Source: Planctomycetota bacterium (GTDB taxonomy: Bacteria; Planctomycetota; UBA8742; UBA2392). Taken from it: DNA of 64,000 nt. Location: contig JAGQRH010000005.1 in the NCBI GenBank assembly GCA_020425605.1, positions 75,850-139,849 on the forward strand, read 5' to 3'. Below, piece by piece: positions 5,564 through 34,573 of this stretch. Numbering within the stretch: the stretch's first letter is position 1; each line of letters begins with the position of its first letter. Below the pieces are notes generated by a model. It made no database searches, was not told where the DNA came from, and worked only from the letters and a program-made list of their open reading frames with translations. Position numbers and translations under genes: made by a program.

Positions 5564-6601
5564 CTATGCCCGTGTCGCGCTCAAGAGCCTCGCGGAGCGT
5601 GCGCGCGGGTTGTTGTGGATCTCGTCGCCCGTGGGGCGCGTTCCGTCGATATCCACGCCCGAATAGAGGCCTGCCTTCAGCCCGCTCAGAAGCGCGTCAT
5701 GCACCCGCTTCTGCTCACCGCTGTGGAACGTGATGAAGGCTGCTCGCCCGCCCGGGTTCAGCAGATACGGCAGCGTACGCAGCAAGTGCTCGAGATTCGC
5801 GACCTCGCGGTTCACGGCCATGCGCAGCGCCTGGAACACACGTGCGGCCGGGTGCTGGTCGCGCGCCGAGCGTTTCTTGTAGCTCTTCAGCCCGTAGGCG
5901 CGCAGCACGATGTTCACCAACTCGCCGGTGCGCGTCGGGCATCCGAGCTTGATGGCCGCGGCAATCGCCTCCGCACGCGGCTCGTCGCCCAGCTCAGTCA
6001 GCATCGCGGCCAGCGCTTCTTCATCGGTGTCGGCGATCAACTGCGCGGCCGTGATGCCACGCGTAGGGTCCATCCGCATATCCAGCGGCGCGTCGCGCTT
6101 GAAGCCGAAGCCGCGCTCCGGGTCGTCCAGCTGCATGCTGGAAACCCCGAAGTCCGCCAGAAGGCAGTCGACGCCGGTCAGTCCCTCGGCCGCGAGCACG
6201 TTGCCGATTCCCGCAAAATTCGTGTGGTGGGCCGAGATCTGGATCCCGCTGGCAGCCAGACGCTCGCTCGTCCGCGCCAGCTCATTGGCGTCGAGGTCGG
6301 TCGCGATCACCCGCGCACCCGCCAGCGCCAAGGCCGCCGAATGACCGCCGTAGCCCAGCGTGCAGTCCAGCGCGACTTCGCCTGCTTTGGGTGCCAGCGC
6401 CGCCAGCACTTCGCGAAGCATCACCGGCACATGGGTGCCCGCCGGCGTACGCCCGGCCGCGCGGACCTTGGCCACCTCGTCGGGGTACTTGTCCGGCGCG
6501 AGCTCCTTGTACTTCTCTTCGAAGCGCTTCGGATGCGTGCCCTGGTAGCGTTTGCGCCTTGGTGGCTTGCCGGGTGCGTCGTTCGTGAGTTCTTCGGTCA
6601 T
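5564..6601 (-). CDS. rsmH: 16S rRNA (cytosine1402-N4)-methyltransferase RsmH/MraW
   Basis: HVPVML, LDCTLGYGGHS SAM site, DFGVSSMQLD, FHSGE motifs. Confidence 0.9.
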   Translation of the reverse strand: MTEELTNDAPGKPPRRKRYQGTHPKRFEEKYKELAPDKYPDEVAKVRAAGRTPAGTHVPVMLREVLAALAPKAGEVALDCTLGYGGHSAALALAGARVIATDLDANELARTSERLAASGIQISAHHTNFAGIGNVLAAEGLTGVDCLLADFGVSSMQLDDPERGFGFKRDAPLDMRMDPTRGITAAQLIADTDEEALAAMLTELGDEPRAEAIAAAIKLGCPTRTGELVNIVLRAYGLKSYKKRSARDQHPAARVFQALRMAVNREVANLEHLLRTLPYLLNPGGRAAFITFHSGEQKRVHDALLSGLKAGLYSGVDIDGTRPTGDEIHNNPRARSARLLSATRA

Positions 6602-8196: not shown

Positions 8197-8985
8197 TCAC
8201 ACCCAAAGCCTACACCACCATTGCGACATCCAGGGCCGCGTTGGACGTACCCAACCACCCGCAAAGCCGCCCTGGTGGCGGAAAGAAAAAACTTCGACAG
8301 CTTCTTGGGCGACCACCGTAGGGGCGGCCTCATGCCCGCCCGACGAAGCCTCAACGAAGTCGGGTGCCGGGCCTGCGTGCATCTCTGCAGCAAAGGCAAC
8401 ATCTCCCCGGGGCTTTGCTGCCAGGGTTATGCTGGCCCCGCAGGGGCGCTCTACGGTAGCCGGGGGCGTGAGCCCCCGGAGCCGGTCATGGCAAGATGGC
8501 GCGCCCAAAGGGCCGCCTAGAGCGTACCCCCCAACCGCAGACACCGAACCGTCCGCGTTCCGTTTCATTCCATGCATCGTGAGAATCTCGTCCAGTTCCT
8601 CGTCGAACGTCTTCTCCGCGTGATGCTGCTCCTGATTGCGGATGTAATCGCGAGTCCGGTCCAGCAGCGACGCGCTGACGGAAAACACGCCATACCCGTC
8701 CTGCCATCCGAATTCCTGCGTCGGCCATTTCTCATGAATCCAGCGTGAAGTATTGGTCTTGATGTCGCGCATCAGGTCGGCGATCGATTGGGTCATCGAC
8801 AGCCCGATCAGCAGGTGCACGTGGTCGGCTATGCCGCCGCCCTCGATCAGCTTGCACTGGCGTTTGTCGCAGACGCCGTGGATGTACTTGAAGAGCTCAA
8901 GCTTGATGTGGGGCGTAATCAGCGGTTTGCGGTCTTTGCAGGCGAAGACCGCGTGGATGCGGACGCTGTGGTAGGTGGAGCCCAT
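8197..8985 (-). mobile_element. IS200/IS605-type Y1 (HUH) transposase, REP-associated (RAYT)-like
   Basis: HUH motif ADHVHLLIG and catalytic Tyr motif RDYIRNQEQHH. Only the first ~150 codons look like the fold. The ORF then runs ~110 more codons through GC-rich hairpins. Confidence 0.8.
8320..8480. repeat. cluster of GC-rich hairpins (REP-like) inside the 3' third of the RAYT ORF
   Basis: GGGCGG/CCGCCC 8322-8341. GCAGCAAAG/CTTTGCTGC 8388-8421. GCCCC-gca-GGGGC 8435-8447. CCGGGGGC-GTGA-GCCCCCGG 8460-8479. Confidence 0.4.
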
Positions 8986-21132: not shown

Positions 21133-22260
21133 ATGGACCTCAAAGGTCGTCTACAGACGCTCGCTACCCTCGAATCTCAATACCCTCACGTCCTTTCCGT
21201 TTACCTGCGGTGCAGGGATGGCGGGCGTGACCGTCGCAAAGAGAACCTGATCTTTATCAAGAACCGGGCCGCCGAAATCGAGCGCGTACTCGGCGACGAC
21301 AAACGCGGATTGGACTTCCTTCGCGAAGGACTTGCGCAGGTTGAACTGATTCGCAAGCAGGATCTGAACAACAACGTGATCGGGCTGGCGCTCTTCCTTC
21401 AGGGCGGCAAGGTAATCGACCGGTTTGAAACTTCGATTCCCTTTGAAGACCAGATGGCGTATCGGCGCTTTCCATTCGTCAGCCAGCTTGCGTTCATCGG
21501 CGAGGAATTCGAGCCTTACGCGGTCGTCCATCTGGACAGCCGCAGCGCACGGGTCTTCGAGATCGCACTGGGTGAGCTGGTGGACAGCAGCGACATCAAG
21601 AGCGAAGTTCACCGTCGTATTCACCGGGGCGGATGGTCGCAAATGCGCTTCCAGCGCGGCATTGAGGGTGAGAAACACGCCCACATCCAGGAGGTAGCGC
21701 AGGCGCTCACGGACCTGGTCGGCAAGCATCGCTACAAGCGCATCGTGGTCGTAGGGCCGGACAAGTCACGCAGTATTCTTCGTGAGTGCCTGACGCCGGA
21801 TGTCGCGCGACGTGTTATCGACGGCGAACGCGTGGACTCCCGAGCGGCGGATCATGAGCTGTTGCAGACAGCTGTCGACTACTTCCGCACCGCCGAGGAC
21901 ACGGAAGAGAACACAAAAGTTGAACGCGTGATCCGCGAGATTCACTCAAGCACCATGGGTGTGTCGGGGCTTGAGGATACGCTCACGTACCTCGCCCGCG
22001 GTCAGGCGTATGAAGTACTGCTGCCGGCCGACCTGAAGATGCAGGGTGCACAATGCAACGCCTGCGGCATGATCTTCAAGGAACAGAGCAGCACCTGCTA
22101 CGCCTGCGACAGCAAGGACATCTCGGGTGTTGACCTGAAGGAAGTGGTCACGCGTACGGCGGTGAAGTTCGGCACCAAGCTGGAGTTCATCAAGGACCAC
22201 GATTTCAAGACCAAGCTGGGCGGCGCCGCGGCGTTGTTGCGCAGCCCGCGCATGAGCTAG
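21133..22260 (+). CDS. bacterial eRF1/Pelota-like protein (baeRF1-type) with Zn-ribbon insert
   Basis: AGGAGA RBS. VHRRIHRGGWSQMRFQRGIE parallels the eRF1 HGRGGQSALRFARLR loop. C-domain has CNAC-X12-CYAC and ends GGAAALLR as in eRF1/Pelota. Confidence 0.65.
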   Translation: MDLKGRLQTLATLESQYPHVLSVYLRCRDGGRDRRKENLIFIKNRAAEIERVLGDDKRGLDFLREGLAQVELIRKQDLNNNVIGLALFLQGGKVIDRFETSIPFEDQMAYRRFPFVSQLAFIGEEFEPYAVVHLDSRSARVFEIALGELVDSSDIKSEVHRRIHRGGWSQMRFQRGIEGEKHAHIQEVAQALTDLVGKHRYKRIVVVGPDKSRSILRECLTPDVARRVIDGERVDSRAADHELLQTAVDYFRTAEDTEENTKVERVIREIHSSTMGVSGLEDTLTYLARGQAYEVLLPADLKMQGAQCNACGMIFKEQSSTCYACDSKDISGVDLKEVVTRTAVKFGTKLEFIKDHDFKTKLGGAAALLRSPRMS

Positions 22261-24860: not shown

Positions 24861-24990
24861 CGCTCATTGCCACGTACGGTTGTGCTTGGATTTTCGGGAT
24901 ACCTTGCGGTCGCGAGGTGTTACATCGTAGTAGCTACGTTCACGGCGTTCGGCGAACCGCGCGCCAATCATTGTTCCTCAGGAGAATTGC

Positions 24991-26121
24991 ATGCGCCTTT
25001 CCCATGTAGTTGGTGCGCTGCTTCTCGCCGGGTTGCTGGCTCCTGCACTGCTCGCCGCTGAGGGCGGCGCGGTCAAGTGGACCAGCGACTTTGAAGCGGC
25101 CAAGAAGTCCGCCGCCGAGCAGAAGAAGCGCCTGTTCATCGAATTCACTGCCGTTTGGTGAGGTCCCTGCAAGCAGCTGGCAGCTGCTGTCTGGAACCAG
25201 GAAACAGTCGCCACGCGCCTCGAGAAAGACTACATCGCCGTCATGATCGACGTGGATGCAGACGAGGTAGTGCCGGCCAAGTACGACGTCAGCGCGATGC
25301 CGACGCTCGTGATCACCGATGCGGAAGGCAATGAGCTCGCGAAGTCCGTGGGTGCGCCATTCAGCGACCCCGAAGGCGCAATCAAGTGGTTCGACGAGAT
25401 TGGCGCCAAGATCGACGCCTTTGCAGGGCTTCAGACGAAGTGGGATGACAGCAAGCACGCCGATGCGGCAATCGGTGAGAAGTTTGCCGAGGCTGCTTCC
25501 GCGCTGGGCAAGGCCAAGCAGGCGATTGAGGTCTACAACGTACTGATTGAACTCGCGGGGGAAGACAAGGCTAAGGCGGGGGCGTTGCACATCCTCGTCG
25601 CGAAGATGCTGCTGGAAGAGTCCAACCTCGACGGCGCAAGTGAGCACGCCGAGACGGCGAACAAGCTACTGCCCGAAGAGGGCGATGCCCGCATTGACCT
25701 GGACATGCTGCGTGCGCAGATTCTGATGTGGTCCGGCGACTCGGCCGGCGCTCGCAAGCTGTGCGAGAAGCACTACGAAGCGCTGCTGAAGGCTGCAGAC
25801 CCGCGTGCTATGGATCTGGCTGACACCTATCTAGGCACGACAGAATCCGACGATGAACAGGTGATCGCGAAGACTGGTCGCGACATGTACCTCAAGCTTG
25901 CCGAAGTGTTCGTCAAGCACGAACGCGTCTGGGAACTGAAAGTATACGCGGCCTACTACGGCCTCTCCTGCAATCAGGAGGAGGCTGCTGTGAAAGAGCT
26001 GAAGGAAGTGATCGAAAAGGGCAAGGGCGACTGGGTCAAGATCGCGAAGAACGTCCTCGAAGGTCACGAGAAGAAGGAAGCCGACAAGGACGGCGATGAG
26101 GACAGCGAAGAAGAAGACTAG
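24991..26121 (+). CDS. secreted thioredoxin-fold protein with in-frame TGA (candidate Sec) in the W-U-G-P-C motif, plus helical-repeat C-domain
   Basis: ATG 24991 (AGGAGA upstream) and a signal peptide. Thioredoxin_7-like FIEFTAVW-TGA(25159-25161)-GPCKQL...MPTLVITDAEGNEL. Same frame as track ORF 25243..26121, with no other stop. Confidence 0.55.
25172..25188 (+). promoter_or_regulatory. candidate bacterial SECIS-like hairpin
   Basis: AGCAGCU-GGC-AGCUGCU begins 10 nt after the UGA. G-rich apical loop. Confidence 0.35.
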
Positions 26122-26141: not shown

Positions 26142-26166
26142 CGGGCGGCGCGTCTGCGCCGCCCGG
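26142..26166. terminator. bidirectional intrinsic terminator
   Basis: CGGGCGGCGC-gtct-GCGCCGCCCG followed by GTTTCATTT. Confidence 0.6.
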
Positions 26167-26194
26167 TTTCATTTAGTTGCGACTTCCCGTACCG

Positions 26195-27088
26195 CTACTT
26201 TGCCGCTCGCACGAGGTACACCGGACACTTGGCGCGGCGCACAACCTTGTCTGCGACGCTACCGATGAGTGCGCGTTCGACACCGGTTCGACCATGGGTT
26301 CCCATCACGATCAGGTCGCAGTGGTGGGTTTCGGCGTAGGCTGCGATCTTTTTGGCGGGGTCACCGCGCTGCACGGCGCCGATGGTCTCGAAGTTGTTCA
26401 TGAGCTCGGCCGGCAACTGCTTGCGCATTTCCTCAAGCGCGTGCTTGCGGAGCTCTTTCAGGATGATGTGGCGCTCTTCCTCAACGTGGGTGCTGATCAA
26501 CGTGTCGTCGATGGTGTGAAGCACAAAGAGCTCGCCGTCCATGTCCTCTGTGAACGCGATTGCTTTGTCGAGGGCGCGCTTGGACGTGTCCGAAAAGTCC
26601 GTGGGAAACAGGATTCGGCTGAAAGGCTTCGACTTCTTCTTCGGGTGTTTGATCTTGCCCTTGGGCTGCTTGGTCACGATCACATCGCACGAGGCTTCGT
26701 GGACCACGCGATCAGCGATGGAACCCAGAAAGAACCGCGCGACAGCGCCGTGCCCATGCGTGCCGATCACGATCAACTCGGACTTGTGGCGTCGTGCGTG
26801 GTCAGCAATCTCCCGAGCCGGTGCGCCACTCAGCAGATAGCGGTTCAGCTTGCCGTTCTTGAGCCGAACCGTGACCTTGTTCAGCGCCGCTTCGGCACCG
26901 GTCATGAGTTCCTTGCTCAGAGACGCAAACGGATAGCCCGCGTAGGCGTACACCGTCGCGTCCACGACGTTCACGACGTCCAGATTCGCCGAGTAATAGT
27001 CTGCCAGCTCCGCCGAGAGCTTGATGGCTGTCTCCGCTGTATCGCTGAAGTCGGTCGGCACGACGATGCGTTTGAACTTGTTGATCAT
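26195..27088 (-). CDS. tandem universal stress protein (2x UspA domains)
   Basis: Start moved to ATG 27088. Both halves end with the ATP-binding pattern (GTHGHGAVARFFLGSIADRV; GTHGRTGVERALIGSVADKV). Confidence 0.85.
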   Translation of the reverse strand: MINKFKRIVVPTDFSDTAETAIKLSAELADYYSANLDVVNVVDATVYAYAGYPFASLSKELMTGAEAALNKVTVRLKNGKLNRYLLSGAPAREIADHARRHKSELIVIGTHGHGAVARFFLGSIADRVVHEASCDVIVTKQPKGKIKHPKKKSKPFSRILFPTDFSDTSKRALDKAIAFTEDMDGELFVLHTIDDTLISTHVEEERHIILKELRKHALEEMRKQLPAELMNNFETIGAVQRGDPAKKIAAYAETHHCDLIVMGTHGRTGVERALIGSVADKVVRRAKCPVYLVRAAK

Positions 27089-27205
27089 GGTTTGCCCCTT
27101 GGTACGTGCAGCAACAATACAAGTGGCCCGTGTGCCGACAACCGCCTCGCTGCTGCCGGAACAGGCTGATTGCGGGGGGCGGCAGCATCCAATAGCATCA
27201 GCCAA

Positions 27206-27692: not shown

Positions 27693-29114
27693 GTGACGGC
27701 TGAGCATCTCAAACCATTTGAACGTTTCCGGGGAAAACGCGGGCTGGTAATGGGCCTGGGCGTTTTCGGTGGTGGCATTGAGTCCGCGAAGTTCCTTTCC
27801 AGGTACTGCTCGCACGTTCTGGTCACTGACCTGCGCGATGAGAGCGTTCTGAAAGAGAGCATCGATGCGCTCGAAGGTCTGCGCATCGAGTACCGCCTTG
27901 GTGAGCATCGCAAGCAGGACTTTGAGCAGGCCGACGTGGTGATTCACTCCCCGGCCGTACGCCCCGACAACCCGCTGTTGCAGGCCGCGCGCCACCACGG
28001 CGCCGAAGTGACCATGGAGATGAGCCTCTTCATCGAGGCCTGCCCGGCAAAGACGGTCGGCATCACCGGCAGCAACGGCAAGACCACGACTGCGCTGCTG
28101 GCCTACGAGATGCTGTGCGAAGTCATGCAGCGCGCCCAGCCGGAGCTTGAGGGCAGGTGGGCCGAGCCGGCAGGGGAGCCGCCCCGCGGCAATGGCAAGG
28201 TCTGGCTCGGCGGCAACTGCGGCGAGCCGCTGCTGAACAAGCTGGAGGGTATGACGTCCGACGATGTGGTCGTGCTTGAGTTGTCCAGCTTCCAGCTTCA
28301 GGACTGGCACCGCATCAAGAAGTCCAGCGACATCAGTGTCATCACCAACATCACGCCCAACCACCTTGACTGGCACAAAGACATGGCCGAGTACATCTGG
28401 GCCAAGGCGGCAATTTATGTGTATTCAACCGGCTCGGTGATCTGCAACTCCGAGCGCGATGAGCTTGCTCAATTGCCGCGGCCCAATGGCGTGGAGTTCC
28501 GTGGCTACAGTACGCATGATGCAGTTGCTCCGCGAGAGACCCTACGACTGCCGGGACAATTCAACTGGTCGAATGCCTGCGCTGCCATGGTGGCTTGCAA
28601 GGCAATCTGCGATGCGGATCTAGTGAACGGACTGAAGCGCTTTCGTGGTGTTGAACACCGTCTGGAGTTCTGCGGAGAAGTGAACGGCGCGCGATGCTTC
28701 AATGACAGCATTGCCACCACGCCGGAGAGCACGATTGCGGGCTTGAGCGCGTTTGACTCCGGCGTCCATCTGCTGCTTGGCGGCAGTGACAAGGGTTTGA
28801 GCTACGACGCGCTGGCGAAGATCATTGCCGAACACTGTGGAATCAAGGGTGTGTACCTGCAGGGCGCCAATGCGGATGCTATCGAAGCGGCAATCCTGCG
28901 GACAGGAATGGCCGCGCCACTGACGCGTTTTGCCACTTTCGACGCCGCATGCGACGCCGCGTTTGCCGCGCTGGAACCCGGCGACGTGTTCCTCATGTCG
29001 CCGGCCTCGGCCAGCTTCTATGAATACGCGCCGCACAAGCGCTTCACAAACTTCGAACACCGTGGACGTTATTTCAAAACGTTAGTACAAGCACACGCTT
29101 CGAAAACTACGTGA
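27693..29114 (+). CDS. murD: UDP-N-acetylmuramoylalanine--D-glutamate ligase
   Basis: GTG start. GLGVFGGG, ITGSNGKTTT, LELSSFQL, Mur ligase C-domain. Confidence 0.9.
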   Translation: MTAEHLKPFERFRGKRGLVMGLGVFGGGIESAKFLSRYCSHVLVTDLRDESVLKESIDALEGLRIEYRLGEHRKQDFEQADVVIHSPAVRPDNPLLQAARHHGAEVTMEMSLFIEACPAKTVGITGSNGKTTTALLAYEMLCEVMQRAQPELEGRWAEPAGEPPRGNGKVWLGGNCGEPLLNKLEGMTSDDVVVLELSSFQLQDWHRIKKSSDISVITNITPNHLDWHKDMAEYIWAKAAIYVYSTGSVICNSERDELAQLPRPNGVEFRGYSTHDAVAPRETLRLPGQFNWSNACAAMVACKAICDADLVNGLKRFRGVEHRLEFCGEVNGARCFNDSIATTPESTIAGLSAFDSGVHLLLGGSDKGLSYDALAKIIAEHCGIKGVYLQGANADAIEAAILRTGMAAPLTRFATFDAACDAAFAALEPGDVFLMSPASASFYEYAPHKRFTNFEHRGRYFKTLVQAHASKTT

Positions 29115-29123
29115 ACTTGTCGC

Positions 29124-29591
29124 ATGACGACCAAGATCCTGGCACCACACTACCTGCGTCTCGAGTGCGAAATCCGCGCTGATATGGAGACGGTGTGGCG
29201 CGCCCTTACGGATCTGCATGAGCTTCGCGCATGGTGGGCCGTTCCCGTGATCAGCCACAAACAGGATGTTGGCGGCGGCTTCGAGCTGCGCTACGTCGGA
29301 CGTGATCGCGTGGACAGGTTCGTCTACACCACATGGGACAAGAACTGGCGAATCGGCGGCCGCTGGAGCTACAGCTGGCTGGATGGCGAAGTTGCCGAAA
29401 TGCTGATCCTGACCGAGATTGAAGGCGGCGTGCGCGTCACGATCGAACACACGAATTTCGAAAGTTTCGGCGCCGACCAGCAGCGCATCTTCGGCTACCA
29501 CAAGAGCGAGACACGCGCACGCCTTGAGCGCCTGAAGGCTTGGGCGGAAGTCCGACTTCCGGCTACGCAGGCCCAGATTCCAGTCGTCTGA
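29124..29591 (+). CDS. SRPBCC/AHSA1-like family protein
   Basis: LECEIRADMETVWRALTDLHELRAWW N-terminus typical of SRPBCC ligand-binding folds. Confidence 0.7.
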   Translation: MTTKILAPHYLRLECEIRADMETVWRALTDLHELRAWWAVPVISHKQDVGGGFELRYVGRDRVDRFVYTTWDKNWRIGGRWSYSWLDGEVAEMLILTEIEGGVRVTIEHTNFESFGADQQRIFGYHKSETRARLERLKAWAEVRLPATQAQIPVV

Positions 29592-31084: not shown

Positions 31085-32323
31085 CTAGTCGTCCTCAACG
31101 CTCCAGTCGAGGTAGCGTTGCATCTCCTGCGGGCTGGTGCCCGGCCGGATGTAGGTCTTTGCGCGTTCAAAGTCCGCGAGTGTCAGCGGGCGTACTTTCA
31201 CCTGGTAGTTGCGCGTAGCGGCGAGTCCGGTGTCGATCAGGTCGGGCAGGTCCTCGTTCAACTGGCCGATCATCTGCGACGTCGCCTGCTTGCAGAGGCG
31301 CTCGATTTCTCGGCCGGAATAGCCGACCGTGTCGTCGATCAGTTCCTTGAGGTCAAACTCAAGCTGATAGCCCTTCTTCAGAAGCTGGATGCTGAGGATG
31401 GCTTCACGTGTCTCTTCATCGGGCAGCGGAATCAGGATCTGCTTCTCGAAGCGGGACATCACGGCTGCGTCAATTTCCCACGGCCGGTTGGTTGCGGCGA
31501 TGGTGAGCACGAAGATGTCGCTGCGGCCTTTCTCGGCCAGCCCGTCAAGCTCGGCCAAAATGGTCGAAAGAATGCGGCGCTCTGCCCCGGTCTGCTCGGA
31601 GTCGCGGTTGCTGGTCAGTGACTCGAATTCGTCGAGGAACACGACGCTGGGGCTGTTGTCGCGCGCGGCGCCATAGATCTCGCTGATGATCTTGCTGCTT
31701 TCGCCGAAATACTTGCTCAGCACGCCGCTGACTTTCACGTTGAAGAACAGCGCCTGGCCTTCGGTGGTGACCTTCAGGCTATTGCTGGTGGCCGCTGCAA
31801 GCAGGGTCTTGCCGGTGCCCGGCGGGCCGTAGAACAGCATGTTTCGGAAGGTCGTGATCTTCACGCCCTCGGGTGGCTTCGCGAGCGACAGGCCGAGCGT
31901 GTACTTGATGTCGCGCTTGGTTTCTTCAAGTCCACCGATATCGTCCCAGGTGATCGTGCTGGTGTGGACCAGCGCCGAGACGGCTTCGCTGATGTTGCTT
32001 TCGGGCTCGCCAGCGGTGGTTTCGTGGCTGCGATTCTCATCCACGTGGCTGCTGGGGGGAGACGGCAGCTTGGCCTTGCCGCTTTCCGGCTTCTCGATGC
32101 CGACTTCGCGCAGGCGCCGGGCGAAATCTCGGTACTCGATTGCCTTGCGCTTCCGGGCGTACTCCATGCTGCGCGACTGGGCGTGCTCGGCAAACTTGAA
32201 CATGGTCTTGCTGGCCGACTCGAAGTTCGCGGCGGCCGTCTCCGAATCGCCTGCCTTCCAGGCCATCTTGGCCTTGTGCAGGGCGTCGTCGCAGGCGCGT
32301 TTGAGTTTGGGTCCTAAGTCCAT
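31085..32323 (-). CDS. MIT-domain + single AAA+ ATPase, Vps4/CdvC-like
   Basis: N-terminal three-helix segment (LKRACDDALHKAKMAWKAGDSETAAANFESASKTMFKFAE...RKRKAIEYRDFARRLRE). Walker A GPPGTGKT, pore loop SKYFGES, Walker B VVFLDEFES, SRH ATNRPWEIDAAVMSRFEKQILIPLPDEETR. Confidence 0.8.
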   Translation of the reverse strand: MDLGPKLKRACDDALHKAKMAWKAGDSETAAANFESASKTMFKFAEHAQSRSMEYARKRKAIEYRDFARRLREVGIEKPESGKAKLPSPPSSHVDENRSHETTAGEPESNISEAVSALVHTSTITWDDIGGLEETKRDIKYTLGLSLAKPPEGVKITTFRNMLFYGPPGTGKTLLAAATSNSLKVTTEGQALFFNVKVSGVLSKYFGESSKIISEIYGAARDNSPSVVFLDEFESLTSNRDSEQTGAERRILSTILAELDGLAEKGRSDIFVLTIAATNRPWEIDAAVMSRFEKQILIPLPDEETREAILSIQLLKKGYQLEFDLKELIDDTVGYSGREIERLCKQATSQMIGQLNEDLPDLIDTGLAATRNYQVKVRPLTLADFERAKTYIRPGTSPQEMQRYLDWSVEDD

Positions 32324-32345
32324 CTTGTTCCGAAGCGTTGGTCGA

Positions 32346-32450
32346 CTAGTGCGTGTACGAGTAGCTAAAGAACATCACTGCGAGCGTCGCACAAAGTACG
32401 AACAGCAGGAACACCCATTCTTCAGTTCGGACTTTGCGACTCTTGAACAT
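32346..32450 (-). CDS. 34-aa transmembrane micro-ORF (not in ORF track)
   Basis: ATG 32450 to TAG 32346. MFKSRKVRTEEWVFLLFVLCATLAVMFFSYSYTH has one TM. It fills most of the 180-nt gap between operon genes. RBS is weak. Confidence 0.3.
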   Translation of the reverse strand: MFKSRKVRTEEWVFLLFVLCATLAVMFFSYSYTH

Positions 32451-32503
32451 CAGTAGCTCACAGGTTCCAAGTCCACTACGGAAGCATGCGCTCCCGAACG
32501 GCC

Positions 32504-33121
32504 CTAAATTGTTCCTTCTTCGGATTCAAGCTTGGCGCGCAACTCCGTTTCGGCCTTGAGTGCCTGGTCAAAGTCGCCGCCTTCTTCGGCTTCGTTGATG
32601 GTGTCGATCTCGGACAGGAAGCGCACCTTCTCAGGATCGCTGTCGTCCATGTCACCCTCGACCTCAAGCCCAAGGTCATCGAGCGTTGCATTCAGCTCGT
32701 CCATGTAGGCTTCCTCGTCGATCTGCTGCAGGGCCAGCTTGGCATCGAGCCCGCTGCTGCGGATACGCTGCAGGAGCTTGTTGACGCCGTCCTTGTCTTT
32801 GCGTTTCTCGAGACGCTCGAGACCGCGCACGTACTTCTTGAGCGCGATACCCTCAAGGTTGCTGACCTTGGCGGCCCGGCGCTGGAAGGCGAAGTCGTAC
32901 TTGATGTCCTTCAGCTCTTCCCAGACGTAGTCGACTTCGATGCTGTTGCCCTCGCGGCGCGCGCGCTTGATCTGTTCAATCAGCGACGCCTGGCGCGTGC
33001 TGAGCTTGCGCATCTCCATGAAATACTTGCGGCGCTCGCGCTCGACCTCGCGCAGCTTGACCTTCAGCTTCCGCAGGTCGACCTTGCTGCCGAACAGGCT
33101 GGCAAAGAATTCGGATACCAT
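32504..33121 (-). CDS. ESCRT-III/Snf7-like protein B (205 aa)
   Basis: Snf7/CHMP4-like N-terminus MVSEFFASLFGSK. Basic hairpin region. Acidic C-terminal half. Terminal ETELRAKLESEE resembles a MIM1 helix. Confidence 0.6.
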   Translation of the reverse strand: MVSEFFASLFGSKVDLRKLKVKLREVERERRKYFMEMRKLSTRQASLIEQIKRARREGNSIEVDYVWEELKDIKYDFAFQRRAAKVSNLEGIALKKYVRGLERLEKRKDKDGVNKLLQRIRSSGLDAKLALQQIDEEAYMDELNATLDDLGLEVEGDMDDSDPEKVRFLSEIDTINEAEEGGDFDQALKAETELRAKLESEEGTI

Positions 33122-33124
33122 CGG

Positions 33125-33796
33125 CTACTCCACCTGCGCTTCCGGCTCATTCCGGGAATTGTCTTCTTCGTCATCGCGCGCGCTTTCGCGGCGCATGATT
33201 TCTTCCTCGATCTCGCGCAGCTCGGCATCGGTCGTGCGCGCGGGCGGGGGCGCTTCGCCCATGATTTCCTTTTCCAGCTTGCGCAGCTCGTCCTTGTCCT
33301 TGTTCGTGAGCACGTCGTCGCGGCTCTGGATCACGCCTTCGCCGGTATTGACCGAATCGCGGAACTTCTCCATGCCTTCTTCGAAATCGAGCATCACGCG
33401 TTCCACCACGCTCTGTTCGATCCCGCGCAGGTCCATTGCTTCCATGGCCTGGATCTTGCCGACCAGGTTCATGTGCAGCTCGATGTTCTTGTTCAGGATG
33501 TCGGCCTTCAGCTTCAGGTTTCCCATCTGCGTGCGCGTGCGTTTGATCTGAAGCAGCACGAACTCTTTCTCGCGGTCGCCGACGCGGCCGGACTTGATGT
33601 TCTCCATGCTCGCGCGCTCAGACAGCTCCAGGCGCGCGAGTTCCTGGCGCGTCTTGCGCAGCTCGACTTCGTTCTGGGTGATCAGCTCGTCGAGGTGCTC
33701 TAGCATCTCCCGCGTGGAATGGGCGTCCTTGATCACCTGCTCGGCGTCGCCGGAAGTGCCTCGCAGCATCTGCTTGATTTGGTCCAGTAGGCTCAT
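33125..33796 (-). CDS. ESCRT-III/PspA-superfamily protein A (223 aa)
   Basis: ATG directly follows the upstream TGA (TGAATG). MSLLDQIKQML N-terminus, long heptad helices, acidic tail with DAELREIEEEIMRRE. Confidence 0.55.
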   Translation of the reverse strand: MSLLDQIKQMLRGTSGDAEQVIKDAHSTREMLEHLDELITQNEVELRKTRQELARLELSERASMENIKSGRVGDREKEFVLLQIKRTRTQMGNLKLKADILNKNIELHMNLVGKIQAMEAMDLRGIEQSVVERVMLDFEEGMEKFRDSVNTGEGVIQSRDDVLTNKDKDELRKLEKEIMGEAPPPARTTDAELREIEEEIMRRESARDDEEDNSRNEPEAQVE

Positions 33797-34573
33797 TCAG
33801 GCCCTTACACTTTCAAATCGGTCGCGCTGGATAATCAGGTCGCCGCCCACCGTCTTTACATCTATGCCCGGTGTACGCTCGGCGTACAGCATCGCGCGGT
33901 CTGTGACAAGGTCACGTCCCACGGCCGTGCGAGTGGCGAGGTCATCGATCAGGATAAATCCGCCCGGTTCCTTCAGCTCATCGGCTGCAGAAAGCGCGGC
34001 ATCGACACGTGCGACCTTCTGGTCGATGGGCTCCGGGTCGAAGAGATTCTCAAACAAGGCAGGCAGGATCGCGCCATCTCCCGGCGGAGTGACAGACCAG
34101 CCCGGATCGGCATACTCAATCAGCGCCGCGCGCCAGTTCGGGCCGCCGCTAAGGGCTCGCATCAACTCGTCGCTGTGGCCGACTTCAATACTGTCGCGGA
34201 CGCCGGCTATGCCCATGATGAAGTAGATGTCCGGCCGAAGTGGCGCGAGTGACCAGCGGACAGTTTCGTGGATTGTCTCGGGTGTAAAGCGGCGTTTTGT
34301 GAACGAAAAGTCCAGCACGACGCATACCTTGACGGTGGCCAGGCCCAGCATCGGCTTATGCAGCAGGCCGACGCTCTCTCGGCGGGTAAAGTTGCCCGTG
34401 CCTGAAGGAGAAAGGTCACCTGAGCGGTAACTGCGGCGGCTGACTCGATTTGGGTCAAAATCGTAGAGGGAACCTTCGGCCGGATGAGGCAACATGCGCT
34501 GGCGCACAATGCGCGATTCGAGCCCGGAAAAGAGGCTCTGCATGGCAGACAGCGAATTGCTTCGATCGGTCAT
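33797..34573 (-). CDS. hypothetical protein, first gene of the ESCRT-like operon (possible degenerate vWA-like alpha/beta fold)
   Basis: ORF 33797..35200 trimmed to ATG 34573 because the upstream part overlaps the divergent ABC gene. VCVVLDFSFTKR is reminiscent of a DxSxS/T MIDAS strand. Confidence 0.5.
   Translation of the reverse strand: MTDRSNSLSAMQSLFSGLESRIVRQRMLPHPAEGSLYDFDPNRVSRRSYRSGDLSPSGTGNFTRRESVGLLHKPMLGLATVKVCVVLDFSFTKRRFTPETIHETVRWSLAPLRPDIYFIMGIAGVRDSIEVGHSDELMRALSGGPNWRAALIEYADPGWSVTPPGDGAILPALFENLFDPEPIDQKVARVDAALSAADELKEPGGFILIDDLATRTAVGRDLVTDRAMLYAERTPGIDVKTVGGDLIIQRDRFESVRA

Follow-up and report, generated by a model that had tools for sequence, protein, structure and literature searches.

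Results

Organization of the locus

We analyzed a 64,000-nucleotide (nt) stretch of DNA, hereafter the window, from contig JAGQRH010000005.1 of a Planctomycetota bacterium (assembly GCA_020425605.1), and focused on the gene at 24991-26121 on its forward strand. We read this gene as encoding one exported thioredoxin (Trx)-fold selenoprotein, with selenocysteine (Sec) in place of the attacking cysteine (Cys), fused to a helical-repeat domain, and we give this reading a probability of about 0.85. The locus forms a single reading frame of 376 sense codons from the ATG at 24991 to the TAG at 26119-26121, and its sole internal stop is a TGA at 25159-25161, in the context ...KKRLFIEFTAVW-TGA-GPCKQLAAAVW.... 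The immediate surroundings, EFTAVW-TGA-GPCKQL, place this codon at the attacking-Cys position of a W-[TGA]-G-P-C motif. A mechanical list of open reading frames (ORFs) holds the gene as two pieces, 24991..25161 (56 amino acids, aa) and 25243..26121 (292 aa). Like the initial annotation, which had opened the frame upstream at the ATG at 24991 and had noted one in-frame stop, we read the same frame and the same stop. The AGGAGA that it had placed 6 nt before the ATG is present, with a spacer of 5 nt instead of 6. The features of the gene are as follows.

24980..24985, + strand: Shine-Dalgarno-like AGGAGA (read from the sequence; spacer to the ATG 5 nt)
24991..26121, + strand: predicted full selenoprotein coding sequence for a product of ~38 kDa, with Sec57 among its 376 sense codons and TAG 26119-26121 as terminator (one frame, one internal TGA; orthologues built alike)
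24991..25059, + strand: signal-peptide-like N-terminus, ~aa 1-23, with MR, a hydrophobic core, then ...LLAA followed by EG (sequence pattern)
25159..25161, + strand: TGA, predicted Sec57, attacking residue of the UxxC redox motif (TGA column in 11 sequences, TGC in two syntenic orthologues)
25072..25356, + strand: Trx-fold domain, ~aa 28-122, active site U57-G-P-C60, cis-Pro motif M103-P104-T105 (Pfam, invariant columns, orthologue model)
25363..26061, + strand: all-helical domain resembling tetratricopeptide repeats (TPR), ~aa 125-357 (AlphaFold model, weak Pfam TPR matches, PDB profile matches)
26062..26118, + strand: acidic low-complexity C-terminal tail, ...EKKEADKDGDEDSEEED (sequence; low model confidence in the orthologue model)

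Conservation of the TGA and occurrence of Cys forms

To collect orthologues, a protein database was queried with the Cys-substituted sequence and DNA was then fetched for the relatives found. Close relatives were of two types: many proteins of 259-316 aa that span just the C-terminal 71-81% of the query, and the full-length WCGPC proteins P0003 (375 aa, 55% identity) and P0014 (390 aa, 39%). At each fetched TGA locus, a short upstream ORF in the same frame reaches a TGA in the identical alignment column, and the consensus around it is ...(F/L)(I/V/L)EFTA(E/V)W-TGA-GPCK(Q/R)L.... There are 11 distinct TGA forms (the window, L001, L004, L005, L166, L170, L171, L172, L179, L180, and L181), drawn from NCBI, ENA, JGI, and Logan assemblies, and their agreement in this one column goes far past what chance would give. 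Over the whole protein, the eight TGA forms measured are 38-80% identical to the window protein, and the set as a whole spans ~35-80%. All 13 orthologues, Sec and Cys forms together, have TAG or TAA as the real terminator. The protein is conserved and synonymous sites vary both before and after the TGA, and the 81 nt between the TGA and 25243 likewise show in-frame protein conservation among orthologues.

The called starts of the downstream fragments are ATG or GTG codons lying ~11-47 codons past the TGA, and the truncated relatives begin variously with VWSKED..., MAKRL..., MIDVD..., MNETV..., or MPTLV.... Given that these starts differ between orthologues, there is no conserved internal start, including at the equivalent of 25243, where orthologues lacking the Trx half would have been expected to begin if the downstream piece were a protein of its own. 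The initial annotation had also anticipated TGA or Cys in the same orthologue column; this column holds TGA in the 11 distinct sequences and TGC in two. The latter, P0003/L174 and P0014/L175, are true syntenic orthologues that encode WCGPC; one genome with a Cys form is GCA_048499555.1. Among Sec forms, L174 is nearest to L170 (58% identity) and L175 to L005 (52% identity); because each is nearest to a different Sec form, the comparison implies that the family switched between Sec and Cys at least twice, independently. P0003 also shares 76% identity with P0005, which, judging from its start position, appears to be a truncated Sec form. Beyond the two syntenic Cys forms, more distant members carry Cys at the UGA column within CYWC or CQPC.

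A conserved hairpin downstream of the UGA

A hairpin that resembles the bacterial Sec insertion sequence (bSECIS) lies directly downstream of the UGA.

25165..25194, + strand: bSECIS-like hairpin (RNAfold -17.0 kcal/mol; comparative pairing)

For its description, the 48 nt from the UGA were folded with RNAfold, and positions are numbered from the U of the UGA. A 6-bp upper stem (25173-25178/25182-25187; G15-U20 pairing with A24-C29) closes the apical loop GGC (25179-25181; G21-G22-C23), and below it come a one-base bulge, three pairs (25169-25171/25188-25190; 11-13/30-32), and the pairing of C7-C8 with G35-G36 (25165-25166/25193-25194). In several orthologues the hairpin is longer and spans the equivalent of 25162-25198. 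The published bSECIS model has an apical loop of 3-9 nt and an upper stem of 4-16 bp (PMC13188914, Fig. 2 legend), with a G within the first two loop positions, a distance of 16-37 nt between UGA and loop, and a minimum free energy of -7.5 kcal/mol or lower (PMC13188914). The window hairpin fits all four requirements, with a 3-nt loop on a 6-bp upper stem, a loop that starts with GG, a UGA-to-loop distance of 17 nt, and a minimum free energy of -17.0 kcal/mol.

In a 12-sequence alignment, the loop residues G21 and G22 are invariant, and standard pairs occupy 88.6% of pair cells, compared with 13-67% when the register is slid. Two compensatory pairs were found, 17-27 changing from A-U to G-C (L179) and 18-26 from G-C to C-G (L180), and covariation over the 11-pair core was equalled by just 7 of 500 column shuffles. 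This support appeared after three divergent orthologues had been added and the test had been restricted to the 11-pair core; a first, nine-sequence alignment had given an extended 16-pair helix without significant covariation. Synonymous-codon identity among eight Sec forms reaches its gene-wide maximum in the ten codons from aa 60 (0.80, compared with 0.51 overall), and the Ala codons GCA-GCT-GCT are retained in a genome of 61% G+C. The residues QLAAA (CAGCTGGCAGCTGCT) of Sec forms are replaced by MLAKD or MLDAQ in Cys forms, and the palindrome CAGCTGGCAGCTG is lost from Cys forms. Taken as a whole, the computational support for this hairpin being a SECIS is good, not conclusive: the bacterial SECIS that had been sought after the TGA is matched by a hairpin that fits the published consensus, is conserved, and shows modest covariation. 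In the literature, a new selenoprotein is recognized once the TGA is conserved in two or more sequences, homologues with Cys exist, and a structure resembling a SECIS is present, and the evidence for the 24991-26121 family exceeds this.

Protein domains and predicted structure

In the Pfam runs, for which Cys was substituted for the internal stop, the N-terminal half matched Thioredoxin_7 (PF13899) over aa 30-110 (3.1e-15, 56.5 bits against a cut-off of 27) and Thioredoxin (PF00085; 9.6e-15, 54.9 bits against a cut-off of 23.5), in line with the Thioredoxin_7-like domain proposed earlier. Matches to TPR_19 and TPR_MalT were weak and under cut-off. The active-site residues W56, C/U57, G58, P59, and C60 and the residues M103, P104, and T105 are invariant in six full-length members. 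In an AlphaFold model of the Cys orthologue P0003 (55% identical; mean predicted local distance difference test score, pLDDT, 87.7; predicted template modeling score 0.79), the Trx fold occupies residues 28-122, helix 56-65 starts at the active site, and eleven helices follow the fold at 125-365, with pLDDT values of ~90-97 in the helical domain. Foldseek matches of the Trx domain were thioredoxins and DsbD-gamma (target-normalized template modeling score, TM, 0.6-0.78), and the Trx domain alone also matched an exported Trx domain related to cytochrome c biogenesis. When the family profile was compared with the PDB, it matched consensus TPR proteins and the "chaperedoxin" 3qou/9wcw at 2.6e-7. 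Acidic tails are present in most orthologues. The helical half described in the initial annotation is thus borne out by the orthologue model and the acidic tail by the sequence. The likeliest role of the helical domain, ~240 aa in length, is to bind protein clients or partners.

As had been proposed, the N-terminus, MRLSHVVGALLLAGLLAPALLAAEGG, is built like a signal peptide, in which a basic residue is followed by a hydrophobic core and then by small residues. This n/h/c-region layout is common to all orthologues, with the sequence itself variable, and the segment is disordered and forms the sole low-confidence N-terminal part of the P0003 model. The product of 24991-26121 would thus function most nearly as a thiol-disulfide oxidoreductase that contains Sec, is exported, and binds clients through a domain like that of CnoX.

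Stop-codon usage and Sec machinery

Stop codons were counted in 49 non-overlapping window ORFs of at least 150 aa, of which 26 end in TAG, 14 in TGA, and 9 in TAA. TAG is therefore the commonest stop of long window ORFs despite a G+C content of ~61%. Two neighboring genes, encoding MurD (27693-29114) and an AHSA1-like protein (29124-29591), terminate at TGA and give products of 473 and 155 aa, compared with 472 and 155 aa for their orthologues in a related genome. Given that TGA acts as an ordinary stop codon in the rest of the window (14 of the 49 long ORFs) and that the MurD and AHSA1 lengths match those of orthologues, a reassigned genetic code was rejected.

Four Planctomycetes (P1, P2, Gemmata obscuriglobus, and Isosphaera pallida) are reported to carry complete sets of selA, selB, selC, and selD (PMC4807772); in P1, two Sec candidates of the "thiol-disulfide isomerase-like thioredoxin" type have been described, each annotated as a pair of genes (PMC4807772, S9 Table). 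The window was screened for other split ORFs in which Cys stands close to an in-frame TGA, and no second protein-like selenoprotein candidate emerged; scans of genome and metagenome contigs with DNA patterns built on WCGPC returned generic thioredoxins of many phyla only. ARAGORN predicted no tRNA of any type in the window. At locus L171, it called a 94-nt "tRNA-Ala (agc)" at 5623-5716 on the + strand, of odd length and anticodon, which may be a false positive or a tRNA-like element.

Gene neighborhood and public annotation

Where flanks are present, the gene order is baeRF-like gene, phosphoglucomutase (- strand), ornithine/aspartate carbamoyltransferase (OTCase), selenoprotein gene, Usp (- strand), PEGA, MurD, and AHSA1. 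The selenoprotein gene is preceded by an intergenic gap of 130 nt and is convergent with the Usp gene (26195-27205, - strand), and a further hairpin lies between the two.

26142..26175, no strand assigned: G+C-rich hairpin with 10 G-C pairs, a loop of 4, and T-rich tails on both strands (terminator scan)

This hairpin is likely a bidirectional terminator shared with the Usp gene, and together with the upstream gap it suggests that the selenoprotein gene is a monocistronic unit. No DsbD/CcdA-type partner was found near the gene.

In GenBank, the orthologue L001 (9785-10939, a TGA form 80% identical to the window protein; GCA_020638675.1, JACKID010000001.1, a metagenome-assembled genome labeled "Planctomycetes bacterium" by NCBI) is split into H6839_07955 (56 aa) and H6839_07960 (312 aa), both hypothetical proteins, and every TGA-form locus is split likewise in JGI and ENA gene calls.

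A gene for a protein of the bacterial eRF1-like release-factor family (375 aa in the window; baeRF_family10 4e-29; also acVLRF1 and baeRF_family2) lies at 21133-22260 (+ strand) of the window, three genes ahead of the selenoprotein gene, and occupies this place in every orthologous locus. Given that it lies beside Sec and Cys forms alike, its position probably reflects synteny and no functional tie to UGA recoding. A conserved cluster at 31085-34570 (- strand), found in all large orthologous loci, comprises an AAA ATPase (412 aa) followed by three tight ORFs (~205, 223, and 257 aa) without a Pfam match. We considered these three ORFs as one recoded gene and rejected this, because neither their spacing nor their frame is constant from locus to locus. 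The only Rfam match at the gathering score was an Acido-Lenti-1 small RNA at 8434-8479 (- strand; 43.9 bits against 37, E 1.2e-6); relatives of this genome are labeled Planctomycetes.

Family size and comparison with known systems

Searched against 1.84 billion proteins, the C-terminal domain (aa 125-376) retrieved 15 cluster representatives at E<=1e-3. Several of them are N-truncated, and the three that were checked (P0051, P0055, and P0058) all proved to be TGA forms. Full-length members among these relatives carry CGPC, CYWC, or CQPC, or have no CxxC; the distant full-length members P0054, P0060, and P0062 have CYWC or CQPC at this place except for P0062, which has no CxxC, so that the family includes probably redox-inactive members. 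With the 56-aa N-terminal fragment as the query, matches were orphan ORFs of 53-56 aa only. The family is small and specific to a Planctomycete clade.

Trx-fold selenoproteins with a UxxC motif have been known since 2005-2006 and include thioredoxin, thiol-disulfide isomerase-like, DsbA-like, and Prx-like proteins (PMC1088965, Table 3; PMC1794560; PMC13188914). The window protein shares with them the predicted replacement by Sec of the attacking Cys at the N-terminal end of CxxC, the existence of homologues with Cys, and a bSECIS-like hairpin directly after the UGA. It differs from those listed by its signal-like N-terminus, its TPR-like domain of ~240 aa, and its acidic tail; neither "TPR" nor "tetratricopeptide" is mentioned in the main text of a 2026 review or in the table of selenoprotein families within that text (PMC13188914). 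The NCBIfam models NF041199 (Trx7/PDZ (seleno)protein), NF045694 (TsoB), and NF041383 (VPGUxxT) also describe Thioredoxin_7/DsbD-gamma-like domains able to carry Sec and gave local matches of 27-54 bits over the Trx domain. No NCBIfam model reached its cut-off, these three remaining far under theirs (28.6 against 300, 54 against 805, and 26.6 against 275). Their motifs are CxxU, UxxxxU, and VPGU, compared with UGPC here, and their partner domains are PDZ and rhodanese.

The closest architecture is that of CnoX/YbbN (PDB 3QOU, 3QDN, 9WCW), in which a Trx domain at the N-terminus is likewise joined to an all-helical TPR domain of comparable size at the C-terminus, and CnoX/YbbN gave the best full-length Foldseek matches against the PDB (3qdn, 3qou, E ~2e-6). 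With hhalign, a comparison with seven CnoX-like Trx-TPR proteins gave 99% probability over columns 44-197, a stretch that takes in the Trx domain and, through the linker helix, the first repeats. In Pfam, the window protein fell short of the combination of TPR_19 and TPR_20 that marks CnoX. CnoX is a cytoplasmic Trx-TPR holdase that passes clients to GroEL/ES, and some CnoX proteins, as in Caulobacter, carry an active CxxC and act as reductases (PMC8129009). In contrast to the cytoplasmic CnoX, the window protein and all its orthologues have a signal-peptide-like N-terminus that would direct them elsewhere. The literature cited here contains no Sec-containing CnoX. Membership of the window protein in CnoX is not established, and we do not file it there.

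Discussion

The conserved TGA, the syntenic Cys forms, and the bSECIS-like hairpin support the earlier proposal of Sec for Cys in a Trx fold, and we therefore favor a single selenoprotein over the two proteins that gene callers report. Several results weigh against this reading or parts of it. The fold after the UGA, taken as a single sequence, was no more stable than shuffled sequences (z = 0.67), so that energy alone is no evidence, and Cys forms fold at comparable energies (-14 to -17 kcal/mol). Covariation is modest, each of the two compensatory pairs occurring in one sequence only, and the Sec forms L166, L180, and partly L004 adopt another hairpin. With E. coli queries (tblastn), SelA, SelB, and SelD had no match in the 64-kb window or in 178 loci, and ARAGORN found no tRNA-Sec in ~150 kb of orthologous loci; for the 64 kb, this is expected given a genome of several Mb, and it makes no statement on the genome. 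The placement of the protein outside the cytoplasm is a prediction from the sequence pattern of its N-terminus. As for the CnoX-like layout, superposition on CnoX/YbbN gave TM values of just 0.21-0.29 (root-mean-square deviation ~20 Å), which indicates that the domain arrangement differs, and hhalign found no homology to CnoX-like proteins over the last two thirds of the helical domain.

If the TGA were a true stop, as the two ORFs of the mechanical list and of public annotations (e.g., H6839_07955 and H6839_07960) present it and as TGA is normally used elsewhere in the window, the locus would encode a 56-aa secreted peptide and a separate 292-aa helical protein from the ATG at 25243, or would be a decaying pseudogene. 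We consider this very improbable. A protein from 25243 would begin within the Trx fold and lack the active site, the starts of the second ORF shift from one orthologue to the next, the stretch between TGA and 25243 is kept as in-frame protein, and Cys orthologues are full length. Moreover, a pseudogene would accumulate other stops and frameshifts, whereas the 11 orthologues, with identities as low as ~35%, share a single stop that is invariably TGA and invariably falls in the catalytic-Cys column. A sequencing or assembly error turning TGC or TGT into TGA, which would make this an ordinary Cys thioredoxin-like protein, needs one base in the case of TGC, and Cys forms do exist in the family. 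We regard the chance of this as negligible: the downstream palindrome is specific to TGA forms, and independent NCBI, ENA, JGI, and Logan assemblies share the same TGA, which excludes a sequencing error or indel, the further concern of the initial annotation.

The UGA could also be recoded to a residue other than Sec, either to Cys through a tRNA with a UCA anticodon and the SelB/SECIS route or to another residue by near-cognate or suppressor read-through. Natural Sec-to-Cys recoding at UGA has been described in some bacteria. A conserved UGA with a SECIS-like hairpin leaves the inserted amino acid unspecified, and the lack of Sec machinery in the window and orthologous loci is compatible with such a route. 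Yet Cys orthologues use a plain TGC, so that a detour from UGA to Cys would bring no benefit; Trp or Gly would destroy a redox motif whose second Cys and cis-Pro are invariant; and the genetic code as a whole is not reassigned. In addition, Sec/Cys pairs together with a hairpin with a G-containing loop are the accepted signature of selenoproteins (PMC1088965). We thus hold recoding to another residue to be improbable, if slightly less so than a true stop, and retain Sec as the favored residue at position 57.

Under the selenoprotein reading, the hairpin at 25165-25194, 17 nt past the UGA at 25159-25161, would be bound during translation by SelB-GTP carrying Sec-tRNA(Sec), and Sec would be inserted at position 57 in place of termination, following the standard bacterial SECIS mechanism; we infer this SelB binding and selenium insertion from the features described above. 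The signal peptide would place the protein outside the cytoplasm, where the Trx-fold domain, with its Sec nucleophile in U-G-P-C and its cis-Pro loop, would perform thiol/selenol-disulfide exchange on client proteins, and the TPR-like domain of ~240 aa, in a layout like that of CnoX/YbbN, would hold clients or partners. A more specific and rather doubtful possibility is that the protein acts as an extracytoplasmic Sec counterpart of CnoX, in which the TPR domain would hold unfolded or oxidized envelope proteins and the Sec-containing Trx domain would reduce or protect their cysteines. If true, it would be the first periplasmic Trx-TPR "chaperedoxin" and the first to use Sec, and its range would be limited to a Planctomycete clade with repeated changes between Sec and Cys.

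The recoding mechanism proposed here is entirely conventional, and our understanding of it is unchanged. The family, combining Thioredoxin_7 and TPR-like domains, apparently exported and restricted to a Planctomycete clade, may be new, or may already be catalogued as generic "Trx-like". The finding would correct a systematic misannotation, given that GenBank and metagenome catalogues split the gene into "hypothetical proteins" of 53-67 aa and 260-316 aa, which renders the catalytic half and the selenium dependence invisible. It would also extend the known range of UxxC selenoproteins by an apparently exported architecture, Thioredoxin_7 plus TPR, in a phylum with a scarcely characterized selenoproteome. 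Finally, close Sec/Cys pairs such as P0003 and the apparent Sec form P0005 could be useful for asking what Sec gains over Cys in an extracytoplasmic oxidoreductase.

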